A stretch of 63,379 nucleotides of DNA, counting the filler, from Neolecta irregularis DAH-3 (lineage: Eukaryota): assembly GCA_001929475.1 (NCBI GenBank). It is 11 parts of 11 records of this genome, joined end to end, with 100 filler letters (N's around TTAATTAATTAA, not from the genome) between each part and the next. Parts side by side here need not be neighbours in the genome. Positions count along the whole stretch, not along the records: positions 31,950 to 36,287 come from LXFE01000563.1; 10 more parts are not named here. One strand, given 5' to 3'. The notes under the pieces are model-generated. The model did no database searches. It worked only from the letters and a program-made list of their open reading frames with translations, and had not been told where the DNA came from. The position numbers were made by a program, and so were the translations under genes. Position 1 is the stretch's first letter, and every line of letters begins with the position of its first letter. Shown here piece after piece: positions 6,607 through 36,387 of this stretch.

Positions 6607-6706
6607 NNNNNNNNNNNNNNNNNNNNNNNNNNNNNNNNNNNNNNNNNNNNTTAATTAATTAANNNNNNNNNNNNNNNNNNNNNNNNNNNNNNNNNNNNNN
6701 NNNNNN
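6607..6706. other. Artificial scaffold spacer N-TTAATTAATTAA-N. Also at about 22361, 31850, 36288, 37852, 39510, 44397, 54966, 60574 and 61815
   Basis: An identical six-frame-stop 12-mer inside ~100-nt N runs, ten times. Confidence 0.98.
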
Positions 6707-21960: not shown

Positions 21961-22460
21961 GACTTTACCCCGACGTCGCAACCCCCACCAGCTTGCCGCC
22001 GCCACCGCCAAAGTATCGGATCGAGCACAAGGAGCAGCAAGGCTCGCCGATCATCGTACGTTAACTTAGGCTAGGTATGTCCCTTTTGTAGAAGTACGTT
22101 TACTGCAAGGGTCAGAGTCACGAAAAAGGATGGATGTAGAGTGACTGTTGAAGGTGGTGAAGGGGAGGGTAGTGACGGATAGGGTTCTTAAAGTTTTGCT
22201 TTTTGATCTTTGATATATTTTTGATGATATGAAAGAGGGGCGGAGGACTAATCTAAATACCTGCAGAACTCAACATACTTCCTTCCAGTACACCCTGTAG
22301 GTTAAAAAAGGAAAAGCTAAGCTAAGCCCCGTTTTATATACGGTGACTCGTCAGCACGCCNNNNNNNNNNNNNNNNNNNNNNNNNNNNNNNNNNNNNNNN
22401 NNNNTTAATTAATTAANNNNNNNNNNNNNNNNNNNNNNNNNNNNNNNNNNNNNNNNNNNN

Positions 22461-26823: not shown

Positions 26824-29599
26824 TTATAATTTCGGGACCGTCGAATTGGGATCATCGGATTCGGATTGACCGACGAGAAGTCCGATTGTTTGGACAACGT
26901 CCACTGGTTCGAGAATATGCCAGGATGCTGCGGTCATTTTGCTAGATGCACCAACGGTTGTTGCGAAACAGTACTTTGGGGGCGGTTCAATCATTCGAAG
27001 AGCTCTAAACATGTCTGATACAAGTCAGCAAACATCATCCATGTCTAAACGAACCTTCGTCAGTTTTATCATCACCGGCACAGAAGATGAATTCCACTGG
27101 ATCAGTCTCTGGAAAAGAGTTTATGAGTTTTTTTACAATTTCTCCCTTGTTGATATGTATTGGCCGAACCTCGAGGTTGGCTTTGCCAGTCAGGACTTCG
27201 ACATCATGCTTGGAGGTGATATTGTTCTCCAGATGATGTTGACATTCATGGGCTTGGAAAGCACCATAGTCTGGATCGGCTCGCCTGTAATGCCAAGTCA
27301 ACGCGCACCGCTTTCGTTCTACAAATGACCCTGATGTCAGTACGAGAACGAGATAACGTCGTGCCTTGGGTTCTTTCTGTGTAATACTGAAAGATCTCTA
27401 AAACATCCTTTTGCCACGACATATCCAAATCTGCAGTCAAGTTCACCCACTCCTCTTCACCTGGATATCGCATAAAACTCCCATGCTCGGCACTGTGTCC
27501 GGGTTATAATGTGAGATTTGGGAAACAAACCTCAAGCCAAGTCTAGGAATATTCCCCATCCAGTCTTCTAGAAACCTTTGATCGCGACCGGAAATTATCC
27601 AGACATGATTATTGCGATCCGCACTTAACAATTTGAGACTTCGTAGCATTCTATCGGTGGGAATTGCAGCACTTGGATCTCGCACGATAGGTGTAAGTGT
27701 ACCGTCGTAATCAAACATGAGTAAACGCTGCCGGGCACTTTTGTAAGCAGATAAAAGTAATGGTTTATCAAGGATGGGTGTCAACTGAGATTGATCGCGA
27801 GCCGAAAGGTTGACTTGAAGCCGTTCAAGAAATCCTCTAGTCCATGCTTGGACAGTATGAGTGGTAATGTGACCAAAGAGTTTGCTTTGTAAACTTCGTT
27901 TCTGATCTTCAGGCATATTAAGAGCGTCGTTGATGGTTTTGGCAACACCCTGATAACATCAGTGGCCGCGTAATGAGGGAAACATGCTCTTCCATCCCAG
28001 GGATTAACCTGGAGTGCGTCGCTTAGACTACCGGCAGTCCCAGTAAACTAGATTTTCAGCAAACATTCTAGTGAAGATTACAAACCTCTGATAAGATTAC
28101 AGGTCCGTTGTGAACATTTTGGCAAACGACGTACTCTAGGCCGGTCGTGTTCATTCCGTCTCGAACAGAGGTTATCAGTCCAATATCAGCAACGCGGAGA
28201 AGTGCAAAGTATTCGTCGGCGTCAAGATATTGATGATAATGGTGTACAGGGGTAAAATCTAACGAACCATAGAGACCGTTGATGTGAGATATCAGCTCCG
28301 ATACTTTTCTTTCGAGCTTGGGTGTTGCAACTGTAGCAGGGGTGGTGACCTGAATCAGAACAACCTGGGAATGAGAAATGAATTAATTAAAGGAGTGCTA
28401 CTTTATGTCTCCATTCGGGATAATGTTCGAGAAAGATCTCAAATGCGCGAAGTTTTTGGAGAACTCCCCGAACTTCATCAAGACAGTCTCGACCAACGAT
28501 GATTTTCTTGCCAGTGTATAATTCTCGAATGGCCTCCATTTTGGGGAGGACGCCGGGTGCTTGAGAATCACGCTCAACACGAGCAGCGTCGATTCCAATT
28601 GGATATACTTCGACTGCCACACGGGCGCCGTAAGCATCAACGCCAGAAGGCGTTGATTCAAAGCCGAGGACTCGGGAACAGCTACTGATGAAATGTCTTG
28701 AATAAGCATAACTTTGAAACCCGATAGTGTTTGCGCCCAGCATTCCCGAGAGAATCTCTTTCCTTCCTATAGATAAGAAGAATATGTATATAGACACTTA
28801 CTGGGCAAGCATCGAAAGTACTCTGAAGAAGGGAAAGGTGCATGCATGAAGAAGCCTATTTTGGCATTTGGTATCCTCTGCCGAAGAATTTGTGGGAGAA
28901 GCATGAATTGGTAATCGTGAATCCAAACTGTTTGTTCAATCAAGGGCGATATAGCGGAGGATTACTAATATCGCCAGGCTTGTGGATTTCCTCAATCTTA
29001 TCCGCAAAAGCTTGATTGAGGCGGATGTAGTCCCTCCACCAGGACTTTTCTTGCCGACCGTCTGTAGCGTCTTCCCAAAGGATGTAATGCAAGAGGGGCC
29101 AGATGACTGCGGATCAGTCCATTGCAGAGCAAGAATATACCTCGCTCGGCGTACATTCTCCACCGGCCCTGGCTCTCTGTTGATCCGAGAACATCGGTGC
29201 CCATCCAGACAGGCACGATTTCTTCCCCGCCCTGTGTATTTACAAGCCTGGCGAAAGCGGACTTGTCCGAGGGTGTGATTTCACAAGTAGCGGCCGGGTC
29301 ATTGGCGTTTCTGGCGAGATCGGGAGCGAGGGCCAATTCGCCCGTCCAGCCGATGAGCTTTGTGTCGAACTCCTTCTGGGCGCCGAGCCACCGGAGACTG
29401 CTGTAGAGCGCCGAGTTCCCGCGGCGCGGCACGATGTCCTGGGAGTGAGGAGGCGCGAAAAGGGCTGAGCAGGTACCCAGGCGCGGTCTGCGGGCGCAAA
29501 AGAGGCCTCGAACGGGACCAGCAGGGTGACCGCGAGGACTCTGGGGCGCGGGGCGCCGTTGGCCGGGTGGAGCAGGGCAGCGCCGTTGGATCCGGCCAT
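26824..29599 (-). CDS. TPS2: Trehalose-6-phosphate phosphatase subunit (GT20 plus HAD domains)
   Basis: RRGNSALYSS, WIHDYQ, FMHAPFPSSEYFRCL, GMLGANTIGFQSYAYSRHF, SVRDGMNTT.LEY, FDYDGTLTPIV, ISGRD, GKANLEVRP, CAGDDKTDEDMF. Confidence 0.95.
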
Positions 29600-31849: not shown

Positions 31850-31964
31850 NNNNNNNNNNNNNNNNNNNNNNNNNNNNNNNNNNNNNNNNNNNNTTAATTA
31901 ATTAANNNNNNNNNNNNNNNNNNNNNNNNNNNNNNNNNNNNNNNNNNNNCCACACCCGCCATCG

Positions 31965-34900
31965 ATGCCGCCCTGCCCGCTCGCGGCTGCCGCAGACCTG
32001 CTGGCCCGCATCGCCTGCGGCGACCCTGTCGATCCTGCCCCTGCCGTCCTCGATGCCCATCCCGCCCTCGCCGCCGCCATCCGCGCCATACACGCCCGCC
32101 TCGCCCCGCAGCCCTCCCTCTGCGCCACCACCCCCTGCATCGCCCCCTCCCTCAACGCCACGGCCTCCCGCAACTCCCGTGATCTCTCCCTCGACACCCT
32201 CCAGCAGGACCTGCATCTCATATTTGCCCGCATGCGCGACGACTGGGCCCTCTCCTCCGCAGACATCGTCGCCCGCTGCTCAGCCCTCCTCTCCCAGGAC
32301 TCCCCCTCCCCCGTCCCCGCGGAAATGGAGGTCGTCCAGCTCAAAAACACAAACGAGGCCTTCACCACTGCCCTCGGCGAGATCATAGAGGTCGTAAAAG
32401 CGGTCGCAAAGGGCGACCTCTCAAAGACCGTCACCGCGGAACACGCAAACCCCATGCTCGCAGAACTAAAGGTCCGCCTTCCCGTATCCCTCTGACCCCA
32501 GGTCACTATCAATGCTATGGTCGGCCATCTCCGCACCTTTGCTTCAGAAGTCACCCGCGTCGCCCGCGAAGTAGGCACCGAAGGCATCCTCGGCGGCCAG
32601 GCTAAAATTGAAGGCGTAGAGGGCACCTGGAGGCAGCTCGCCGACAATGTATGTCCGCACTGGTCGCCCTGACAATAGGTGAACGACATGGCTCGCAACC
32701 TCACAGACCAGGTCCGCGAAATATCCTCCGTCACTACCGCTGTCGCAAGCGGCGACCTGGTGCGTCCATTTGTCGCCCCTCTTACACTAGAGCCAAAAAA
32801 TTGAAGTCCACGCAAAAGGCGAAATGCATGTACCCTTCTCGTCTCTGCTCTAACAGCAGTCTGTTGCTCAAAACCACTATAAACAACATGGTCAATAGAC
32901 TAAATGTCTTTGCCTTTGAAGTCACTCGCGTCGCACGAGAAGTAGGCATAGACGGCAAACTAGGCGTCCAGGCAGAAGTCAATGATGTCCACGGCACTTG
33001 GAAAGAAATTACCTCAAACGTCAATACCATGGCCACAAACCTCACAAGCGTATGCCCCCCTTCTTCTCTGCTGATTTCAGCAAGTAACTATTGCTCTCCT
33101 CTGATGCTCACTCAAGGTTCGGCCTTTCCCCATGTCCCATGCTCACTCAAGGTCCGTGCTTTTGCTCAAATCACCGCTTCAGCTACAGATGGAGACTTTA
33201 CCAGATTCATCACCGTCGAAGCCTCTGGAGGTCGTTCTTCTTTCTTCGATATATTAACAGCAGAAATGGACACTCTTAAAACCAAAATCAATCAAATGGT
33301 GCACAATCTCCGAGACAGTATCCAAAAGAACACCCAAGCAAAAGAAGCTGCCGAGCTCGCTAATAGAGCAAAATCAGAGTTTTTGGCAAATATGTATGCT
33401 GCCTGCTATCCTTTTCCAACTCTAGGTCACATGAAATTAGAACACCCATGAATGGGATAATTGGAATGACCACCCTGACTTTGGAAACCGAATTAACCCG
33501 CGCTCAACGAGAAAACCTGCTCATCGTGCAAAACTTGGCCCATTCCTTGTTGGCCATCATTGACGATATCCTCGATATCTCAAAAAGTGTCCCCTCTGCA
33601 TATTGGACTAACAGTTAGTCGAGGCAAATCGCATGAACGTTGAACAAATCCCCTTTTCACTACGCGCCGCCGTATTTGGAGTTCTTAAAACGCTGGCCGT
33701 AAAAGCTACTCAAAAAGATCTTGCGTTGAATTATGACGTTGATAATAACATCCCTGATCACGTCATTGGAGACCCTCTCCGTCTTAAACAAGTCATTACA
33801 AACTTGGTTGGAAATGCCATTGTACGAGTATTTATTTTCTTTCTGACTGTAGAAATTCACTGACCAAGGCCATGTTGCTTTGAGTGTTCGTATGGAGCAT
33901 AATACAGTCACCGAACCCGGTTCTTTGCTTTTGAAATTTTGTGTTGCTGATACGGGAATCGGTATTCCTCAGGACAAGAAAAAGATCATTTTTGGCACGT
34001 TTGTCCAAGCTGACGGATCCACCACTCGAGTATTTTTCAGATAGTGTTATGCTGATTGTAGAAATTCGGCGGAACGGGTCTTGGCTTGTCGATTTCGAAA
34101 AACTTGGTAGATCTCATGGGTGGCGTAGTTTGGGTCGAAGGAGAATATGGCAGTGGAAGTCAATTCTACTTTACCATTAAATTCAAAGAAGGCGAACTTG
34201 ATATTAACGCTCAAATGCAGCAGATGCAATCATTCCACGGACGGTCAATCTTATTTATTGACGTCCTTCGAGACCAGACTGGGGTCGCTTTAATCATTAC
34301 TAAATTAGGTCTTGTACCACATGTCGTTCATTCAATTGAAGAAGCGAGCAATTTCCCTAAATCGACTCTTTTCGATACGATCATCGTAGATTCGTTGGAA
34401 CCAGCCATGAAACTTCGCGAAGTGCAAAGTCTACGGTATATCCCTGTGGTCCTCTTGGCTCCCTCGATACCAAATTTAAACCTCAAAAGTTGTCTTGATC
34501 TGGGAATTACGAGTTATAGCAATACGCCTACCGACATTGGAGATCTTTCTTCGGCGTTGTTACCTGCCCTTGAAAGTCGAGCATCCCCCTCTAGTTCCGA
34601 GAACCCCAAAACGCTAAATATACTTTTAGCTGAGGACAACGAAGTGAACCAGAAACTAGCTGTAAAGATTCTGGAAAAGTACAAGCACAAGGTTATTGTC
34701 GTTGATAACGGACAAGCTGCTGTTGAAGCAGTAAAGGGCGACCAGGATTTTGACGCAATTTTAATGGACGGTAACGTGATTTTCCAGCATACATGGCTAA
34801 ATACCAGTGCAAATGCCTATTATGGGCGGCTTTGAAGCAACCGGGTTAATTCGAGAATGGGAAAGGGAAAATAATCGTCCGAGTTTACCTATAATCGCTC

Positions 34901-35247
34901 TAACCGCTCACGCAATGCTAGGGGACAAGGTACTTTTCCTTTCCGAGCTAAATACTTACGCTCAGGAAAAATGTTTAGCGGCTTCGATGACCGATTACGT
35001 TCAAAAACCGCTTAAAATCTCCGAACTAGAACGGGCGCTTGCTCGTGTGCAGGAACACCGCGAGTCTCATAGACCATGGGTTACTAAAAACAGTTATGTT
35101 CAGCCTAAATATGACCGAACTGGTCTTGTTACTAGGATTTTGCCGGATATCGATTTAGCGGGTCTTGCTGAGCAGCAGTGTATTTCTAGACCTTGTTCGC
35201 GAAGTGGAGTCGACGATATTAGTCTTGTCATCACTCCATTGATTTAA
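31965..35247 (+). CDS. NIK1: Group III hybrid histidine kinase (Nik1/Os-1 type)
   Basis: Poly-HAMP repeats ([18 protein letters not shown]...GTW), H-box [23 protein letters not shown]-box [15 protein letters not shown] boxes DTGIGI and FGGTGLGL, and receiver [27 protein letters not shown]. Confidence 0.95.
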
Positions 35248-36070
35248 GCAATACGTTCATTCTATTCCTTTCATATTTTCGTTATTTACTGCTGATGTTT
35301 ATCACGGCCTGTTTTGCATCATGTTCTTGTTTTTCTTAGTTACTGCGTTTTTGCTGAGCGTTTTTGTCTTGGTTATTGTCTCAAGAGATTATTTTGTTTT
35401 TTGTGGTTCAATATATGTTGATGGGGCATTGATTATCTGCGATTATCCTTGTATCCTCATCAGTATTATCAACAGTTGCCGGTACAATTTCACAATTTAC
35501 CACCACGCAGTGTCAATTAATTACGGCCTCGTGTTTGCCCTCCTAACCTTTCCCCGTATGTCCTTTGCAGCTTTGTAGAAAATGTCCTCTGGCTGGTATG
35601 AAAATGATATTGTAATCTTTGGAGGATTTGGCTTATTTTAGTCAATGTCTAGATTCTATAACCGATGCGGTGCTGTTTCCTGTTGGGTCTGTAGGCGCTT
35701 GCTTGTAGGACCGAATATGCTTATTCATATAGCAAAGGGTTCTAACCATAGTTATTTCTCGGTTTATACAAGTCATCTAAGTCTGCAAGCTCTGCAATTG
35801 CAGCCTGCGATACTCCCAAGTCGATACCCCCAGAAGTCGACACTGTAAGTATTTACCCTCGTAAAGCTTACCATTACGGAAGGAAGGCTTGCAATAATAT
35901 TGCGGCAATTTAATTTGTATGATATAAAGTAGATAGGCGTTCATTACCTAGCCAAGTTCAGTCACTCAGGTTACAAGATACATATATATAATACAAATTT
36001 AACCACAACCTCTATTTCACACACTGATCTTGTGGAATTGAAATCAAGACTCTGTCCAGTCTACCCTTTG

Positions 36071-36287
36071 CTATTGTGCTTTCTCATTTAGCTTGGTTTT
36101 CCGAATGCCATGTTCAATTGACTTGAACAAGAAATGATCTCGATGATAGCTATTAAACGGTGTGAAGTGATTTTCAACCACTTCTATTTTGGTCGCCTCG
36201 TACAGGCGAACGGATACTTCTTCGTCATCATCTTGTGATTCTTGTGCTGTAGTAATAGGTCGAGGCGGGATGATTTTCATGTCATCT
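36071..36287 (-). CDS. Possible 3' end of a gene truncated by the gap
   Basis: Open frame running into the gap with protein-like composition. No family recognised. Confidence 0.3.
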
Positions 36288-36387
36288 NNNNNNNNNNNNN
36301 NNNNNNNNNNNNNNNNNNNNNNNNNNNNNNNTTAATTAATTAANNNNNNNNNNNNNNNNNNNNNNNNNNNNNNNNNNNNNNNNNNNN

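Follow-up and report, generated by a model that had tools for sequence, protein, structure and literature searches.

A model in which introns are gained when a segment containing AGGT is duplicated in tandem was reportedly put forward by Rogers in 1989. Introns born by duplication have been shown experimentally and in potato (PMC3265369, PMC4974935). Zero-length exons are reported to support recursive splicing at ratchet points in large introns of Drosophila (bioRxiv 10.1101/006163), and two instances of recursion through a zero-length exon are reported for fission yeast, including one in a 336-nucleotide (nt) intron of the noncoding RNA SPNCRNA.445 (bioRxiv 10.1101/226894). Filamentous fungi are described as having stwintrons, complex intervening sequences that need two consecutive U2-type excisions (PMC5639578), and very small exons are reported in Fusarium CYP621A (1 nt, with read support; PMC12940212) and Drosophila homothorax (a 3-bp microexon; PMC7392893). 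Neolecta is reported to be rich in introns, about 26% of which were independent gains (PMC7940399). Here we analyze a 102-nt stretch (positions 33050 to 33151) in the last HAMP repeat of NIK1, the gene for an osmosensor kinase (group III hybrid histidine kinase) in Neolecta irregularis DAH-3, in a window of 63,379 nt (the whole stretch of DNA analyzed). This stretch very probably contains a 3-nt exon, and the 68 nt that follow it may be removed as two introns (33 and 35 nt) that abut at a zero-length exon.

A sequence-only reading of this DNA had divided the stretch into a 31-nt intron, the 3-nt exon CAA, and two back-to-back introns, and that layout matches the sequence base for base. The AAG acceptor of the 33-nt unit directly abuts the next GT (CTCACTCAAG/GTTCGG at 33116/33117; the slash marks a splice junction), so that a 3' splice site lies immediately before a 5' splice site inside the removed stretch. 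The same reading correctly held that the stretch is divisible by three in length and contains no stop codon and that removal of the 31- and 33-nt units alone would leave 35 nt and shift the frame. Its suggestion of skipped (without Gln) and retained (34 additional residues) isoforms fared less well: nothing was found in their favor, and a stop-free length divisible by three is weak evidence. The 33-nt intron at 33231 to 33263 likewise has both properties and is read through in the public gene model.

The 3-nt exon is called for by the orthologs. When the read-through translation was compared by BLASTP with the ortholog of Saitoella coloradoensis (P0122), both flanks aligned around a 33-residue gap at which the ortholog has a single residue, Gln. 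In an alignment of 15 orthologs, hand-picked for taxonomic spread, N518, L519, T520, Q522, V523, R524, and F526 are invariant (15/15), and the preceding HAMP repeat of the Neolecta protein carries NLTDQVR (encoded at 32694 to 32714), as the earlier reading had stated. The motif xLTxQ[VM]R[AG]F occurs in 85 of the 88 proteins that cover the region; these are what remains of 113 listed proteins after setting aside 3 without a recognizable H-box (including P0121, the public NIK1 model) and 22 fragments, with seven from a separate search excluded. The distance from the motif to the H-box is 75 residues in 73 proteins, 76 in 11, and 74 in 1. Two of the three exceptions still have QVR[AG]F after nonhomologous sequence, and only P0137 has no Gln.

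All combinations of up to three GT/GC-AG introns of 18 to 130 nt were enumerated for the region from 33020 to 33187. Only 44 of the 1071 combinations were in frame, and NLTSQVRAF was obtained exclusively by removing 31 plus 68 nt or 31 plus 33 plus 35 nt. The Gln is required, as had been claimed, and is obtainable only from CAA, which serves both the conserved residue and the reading frame. The sites that flank it (TTTCAG/CAA/GTAACT) score 7.5 bits for the 3' splice site and 5.2 bits for the donor, both inside the range of the curated introns described below. When the interior of the 102 nt was shuffled 300,000 times with the ends fixed, 31 shuffles could be parsed as a unit followed by CAA or CAG and a GT or GC, and none as a unit, CAA or CAG, and two further units. 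The microexon arrangement is therefore far beyond chance, and the three-unit parse is largely explained by the duplication considered below. Given the invariant Gln and the fact that only two splice combinations restore NLTSQVRAF, the mature mRNA very probably reads ...ACA AGC/CAA/GTC CGT..., with a 31-nt intron, a 3-nt Gln exon, and 68 nt removed. A search of the protein collection with the read-through stretch, among proteins of near length, yielded no transcript-derived Neolecta peptide (best match, 75% identity over 51% of the query).

Predicted proteins of other fungi also break or deviate near these residues (P0137, P0164, P0179, P0184, and P0197), with examples such as NLTIRAF in Acaulospora, fragments whose nonhomologous sequence leads directly into TAQVRAF, and GNVQVRGF in Suillus. 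This pattern suggests introns at or near this HAMP position in several fungal lineages.

To judge the 68 nt, introns were curated by eye from the junctions of open reading frames (ORFs), from Pfam profile coordinates in a trehalose-phosphate synthase/phosphatase gene, and by reading the sequence, which gave 26 introns, 11 in NIK1 (the three units in question excluded) and 15 in other genes of the window. In automated intron detection, ORF-bridging counts were flat noise, and the calls of a home-made Viterbi gene finder were drawn toward GC-rich sequence. The curated introns are 30 to 41 nt long (mean, 35.1; standard deviation [SD], 3.05), and the branch motif was present in 24 of the 25 that were scored, with the branch A 24 to 33 nt from the 5' end and 6 to 10 nt from the 3' end. 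Where introns of 105 to 136 nt had seemed necessary, the junction could be read as two short introns on either side of a small exon. Within NIK1, introns consist of GT, about 20 pyrimidine-rich nt, and then CTNAY-NNN-AG, which lines up in all 14 units when these are aligned from their 3' ends; the 33- and 35-nt units each have this same build. No published intron lengths for Neolecta were found; the main text of the genome paper (PMC5309816) never uses the word intron, and its supplements may hold such statistics.

The three units of 31, 33, and 35 nt fit this description, with the branch A 25, 27, and 29 nt from the 5' end, respectively, and 6 nt from the 3' end in each. Their donors score 7.8, 5.2, and 3.5 bits (leave-one-out range, 0.5 to 8.3), that of the 31-nt intron being near the top of 25. 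Their pyrimidine fractions are 0.74, 0.64, and 0.69, compared to 0.59 ± 0.07 in introns and 0.51 ± 0.11 in 33-nt coding windows. The narrow range of intron lengths favors two units in the 68 nt without proving them.

The 33- and 35-nt units share a direct repeat of 24 nt (21/24 identical) with a period of 35, which takes in the branch motif and AG as well as 11 nt from the start of the exon. The duplicated 3' splice site of the last two units had been noticed from the sequence, and the similarity is longer than noted, reaching into a copy of the exon start. The exact 13-mer ATGCTCACTCAAG is found only at these two sites in the window. The 5' end of the 35-nt unit (GTTCGGCCTTT) copies the exon start (GTCCGTGCTTT) at 8 of 11 positions, its last 13 nt are those of the 33-nt unit (13/13), and its length equals the repeat period. 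Setting the obligatory GT aside, 6 of 9 positions match at the exon start (P ~0.025 by our own arithmetic); outside the 24 nt, the copies agree no better than by chance (4/11 or 2/11 depending on register, own count). The 35-nt unit thus has the three marks of an intron gained by tandem duplication: a 5' end resembling the downstream exon start, a 3' end resembling the upstream sequence, and a length equal to the period. A different source, intron 1 of NIK1 (32472 to 32501), was rejected; its best edit distance of 6 was equaled by 102 of 200 shuffled queries.

The 24-nt repeat indicates a local duplication. Either the duplicated segment measured about 24 nt and was accompanied by 11 nt of filler, or it measured 35 nt and is old, with identity preserved only in the functional 13 nt. 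An old 35-nt duplication would imply constraint on both copies of the branch site and acceptor, of which there is a weak sign in that the 11-nt part holds all 3 mismatches (P ~0.08).

Such a locus may have arisen by a local tandem duplication, with a period of 35, of the 3' end of an older intron and the start of the exon behind it. As GT opens the exon, the copied exon start lying upstream would have become a 5' splice site, and the product would be a second intron butted onto the first with a zero-length exon between them. Since introns here are held to 30 to 41 nt with the branch A 24 to 33 nt from the donor, each unit may be recognized on its own, donor and branch A being paired as 33050 with 33074, 33084 with 33110, and 33117 with 33145. 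The first of these pairings would keep CAA in the message without exon definition, and unit-by-unit recognition would explain how a 3-nt exon is retained. The spliceosome is so large that splice sites 0 to 3 nt apart can hardly be occupied simultaneously, so the cuts would have to be sequential. Either order would work, with a normal-sized intron remaining after the first cut: removal of the 33-nt unit first would regenerate CAA/GTTCGG, and removal of the 35-nt unit first would restore the presumed ancestral 33-nt intron.

We favor removal of the 68 nt in two steps over removal in one, and give the two-step route about an even chance. The wider proposal is that Neolecta introns are locked to about 30 to 41 nt, so that a duplicated intron end cannot lengthen an intron and instead becomes a second, abutting one, with three excisions within 102 nt and exons of 3 and 0 nt; this we hold tentatively, at a little short of even.

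Several observations weigh against two-step removal. Both routes yield an identical mRNA. The 35-nt unit is intron-like largely as a duplicate, its branch site and AG having been copied and its GT having come from the exon, and its donor, GTTCGG, is mid-range, with 13% of the exonic GTs of NIK1 scoring as high. The curated introns were chosen without RNA support and with preference for the shortest candidate that restored the frame, and their length range may therefore be too narrow. A loose pattern for an intron-like unit is not enriched in the window (317 matches versus 428 ± 33 in shuffled sequence; 3 abutting pairs versus a mean of 1.9), and the intron-likeness of one unit therefore proves little. 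The coding stretch from 32679 to 32711 (pyrimidine fraction, 0.45) fits GT...CTCAC...CAG, abuts the real intron at 32649 to 32678, and has a GT behind it. Parses of this kind can therefore arise and go unused; as this decoy shows, splice signals alone do not define introns here. Finally, a scan of metagenomes (80 loci kept of 591 confirmed) gave no relative of Neolecta with which the duplication could be dated. Nearly all of the loci were uninterrupted HAMP arrays of bacterial type; only L001 and L002 looked eukaryotic (as read from BLAST pieces), and both encode NLTxQVR without an intron, neither being a close relative.

The strongest competitor is removal of 33084 to 33151 as a single oversized intron that uses the distal branch site and AG, which would give the same mRNA with the same 3-nt exon and would leave the internal AAG/GT, together with the proximal branch site, as an unused relic of the duplication. 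It is the simplest reading and yields NLTSQVRAF; the 3.5-bit donor of the 35-nt unit is barely above the true exon start (GTCCGTGC, 2.9 bits), and chance intron-like parses such as the coding decoy do exist. However, an intron of 68 nt would be about 10 SD above the curated mean (maximum, 41 nt), with 62 nt rather than 24 to 33 nt between donor and branch A. Folding revealed no RNA structure that would shorten the 68 nt or join its ends (z = +1.06, -0.09, and -0.02). The complete identity of the proximal 13 nt with the distal copy, next to 11 nt with 3 changes, is a further weak hint that both copies are constrained. On balance, one-step removal is quite possible but short of probable.

Removal of the whole 102 nt as one intron, or as 67 plus 35 nt, would give a protein without Gln (NLTS-VRAF). 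The stretch does run from GT to AG and its removal keeps the frame, but the Gln is invariant in the aligned orthologs and the spacing to the H-box is fixed in 85 of 88 proteins. Such an intron would exceed the curated lengths by about 22 SD and would leave a top-scoring acceptor/donor pair, around CAA, unused, when the chance of such a pair flanking CAA or CAG is about 1e-4. We regard this outcome as very unlikely. It is similarly improbable that the repeat is an assembly artifact or that the gene copy is decaying. The assembly is reported to be a short-contig draft from field-collected fruiting bodies with an N50 of 16 kb (PMC5309816, which also reports sequencing of fruiting-body RNA), but the repeat copies are 88% rather than 100% identical, their exact core of 13 nt is shorter than the usual assembly words, and the spliced gene is open over 941 codons with all kinase and receiver motifs kept. 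Least likely is that the public model is right and the HAMP helix gains 34 residues by translation of the 102 nt: the stretch is stop-free, divisible by three, and annotated in this way in P0121, but the insert is absent from all 85 motif-carrying orthologs, the stretch has the composition and signals of an intron, and the public model is wrong at other sites too (the H-box, 11 HAMP residues, and the intron at 33231).

Our own NIK1 model was built from GT/GC-AG splice candidates. Removal of 13 introns (the 68 nt counted as one) gives 2826 nt in frame with a single terminal stop, and the motifs that are kept include a 20-residue stretch and DVQMPIMGG. P0121, by comparison, translates the 102 nt as 34 residues (read-through, ...CSLKVRAF) and adds 11 residues by reading through the 33-nt intron at 33231 to 33263. 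It omits 11 HAMP residues through a 63-nt "intron" at 32649 to 32711, which wrongly splices out coding sequence at 32679 to 32711, and is shifted in frame across 32807 to 32860. It has neither the H-box (MSHEIR, in place of which it has FLANITPMNG) nor VGNAI, and our model restores the H-box. A frameshift at 32830 was considered as a defect of the gene and rejected; a GC-AG intron at 32826 to 32859 (34 nt, donor GCATGT) restores the frame and gives a 14-residue stretch of the same length as GEILELKSTINKMV in Saitoella. Because the public model has several faulty sites, errors from very short and GC-AG introns pass into comparative work based on this proteome.

The gene lies on a 4338-nt piece of the window (31950 to 36287). 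The translated exon at 34062 to 34769 was 100% identical in a protein search to P0121, a 970-residue protein named "Histidine protein kinase NIK1 [Neolecta irregularis DAH-3]" at NCBI, whose precomputed Pfam domains are HAMP (PF00672, PF18947), HisKA (PF00512), HATPase_c (PF02518), and Response_reg (PF00072). The domains and this identity bear out the earlier description of the gene as a HAMP-repeat histidine kinase. The next match was P0122 ("histidine kinase osmosensor"), with 64% identity over the C-terminal exon. Tandem HAMP repeats N-terminal of the kinase core align to four successive Saitoella repeats, and a HisKA H-box, HATPase_c, and a C-terminal receiver are combined in one protein, as in group III. 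The Neolecta protein thus has in common with the group III kinases (Nik1/Os-1/Tco1) the HAMP repeats, H-box, HATPase, and receiver; at 941 residues, its N-terminal HAMP array is shorter than that of the 1160-residue Saitoella protein. The coordinates of the features are collected in Table 1.

Table 1. Positions of NIK1 and of the features in and around its 102-nt stretch (window coordinates)
Feature	Positions	Strand	Content	Basis or match
NIK1 coding region	31965..35247	+	14 exons including the 3-nt exon; 941 amino acids plus stop	own model
Upstream exon, 190 nt	32860..33049	+	ends ...ACA AGC	60% identity to Saitoella P0122 residues 459-521
Intron, 31 nt	33050..33080	+	GTATGC..CTGATTTCAG; CTGAT branch motif 33071-33075 (A 33074); CAG acceptor	
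Predicted 3-nt exon CAA	33081..33083	+	invariant Gln of NLTSQVR	splice enumeration and ortholog comparison
Candidate unit, 33 nt	33084..33116	+	GTAACT..CTCACTCAAG; CTCAC branch motif 33107-33111 (A 33110); AAG acceptor	
Candidate unit, 35 nt	33117..33151	+	GTTCGG..CTCACTCAAG; CTCAC branch motif 33142-33146 (A 33145); AAG acceptor	
Downstream exon, 79 nt	33152..33230	+	begins GTC CGT GCT	own gene model and Saitoella alignment
Direct repeat copy 1, 24 nt	33104..33127	+	branch site, 3' splice site, and diverged copy of exon start	repeat search; reference copy
Direct repeat copy 2	33139..33162	+	branch site, 3' splice site, and true exon start GTCCGTGCTTT	88% identity to copy 1

Other features of the window were recorded alongside. 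The 5' third of NIK1 (32001 to 34000) is GC-rich and strongly C-skewed (GC, 0.52; GC skew, -0.21) compared to the 3' part (GC, 0.42). Three of the 26 curated introns are of the GC-AG type, at 32826 to 32859 (GCATGT), 27950 to 27987 on the minus strand (GCATGT), and 27331 to 27364 on the minus strand (GCACGA), and each is required for a conserved motif to stay in frame. GC-AG introns are usually quoted at roughly 1%, and 3 of 26 is a high share. The trehalose-phosphate synthase/phosphatase gene (Glyco_transf_20 plus Trehalose_PPase; 27038 to 28800, minus strand) has at least 5 introns of 34 to 38 nt and one 60-nt exon. The window itself consists of contigs joined by N44-TTAATTAATTAA-N44 spacers (6607 to 6706, 22361 to 22460, 31850 to 31949, 36288 to 36387, and others) and contains 10-N runs; adjacency across the spacers therefore carries no meaning.

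If the units are cut separately, length-constrained, intron-defined splicing can cope with exons of 3 and 0 nt, and recursive-type splicing extends beyond long introns. A small tandem duplication across a 3' splice site would then make a new intron at once, which would provide a concrete, datable example for the question of how new introns originate. The locus would be the tightest intron packing described. It would also be a snapshot from nature of how introns multiply through local duplication, in a lineage for which the gain of about one intron in four is reported (PMC7940399).

The recursion cases of Drosophila and fission yeast, the latter reported from the same subphylum as Neolecta, have in common with this locus an AG/GT abutment inside one annotated intervening sequence, which makes piecewise removal possible. 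The introns known from those cases are long, whereas the Neolecta sequence, for which stepwise removal is a proposal, totals 68 nt in normal-sized pieces, sits beside a 3-nt exon within a coding gene, and was created by a visible duplication. In stwintrons, the inner intron splits a splice signal of the outer; in Neolecta each unit has its three signals contiguous, and the units touch without being nested. The words tandem, abut, zero, and recursive are absent from the stwintron paper (PMC5639578). The tiny exons of Fusarium and Drosophila resemble that of Neolecta in that each restores a conserved residue or the frame and was missed by annotation pipelines; they are supported by transcripts, whereas the Neolecta exon is predicted and has flanking introns of just 31 and 33 (or 68) nt. 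As in the AGGT-duplication model, the ends of the 35-nt unit copy the flanking sequence, its length is the period, and its splicing would restore the old mRNA. Unlike in that model, the duplicated AG/GT was an existing intron-exon boundary rather than an exonic AGGT, so the product would be an intron abutting an intron, and 24 of the 35 nt are still recognizably repeated. What is new here is the combination and the scale: tiny putative introns of normal size that abut one another in a coding gene and still show the duplication.

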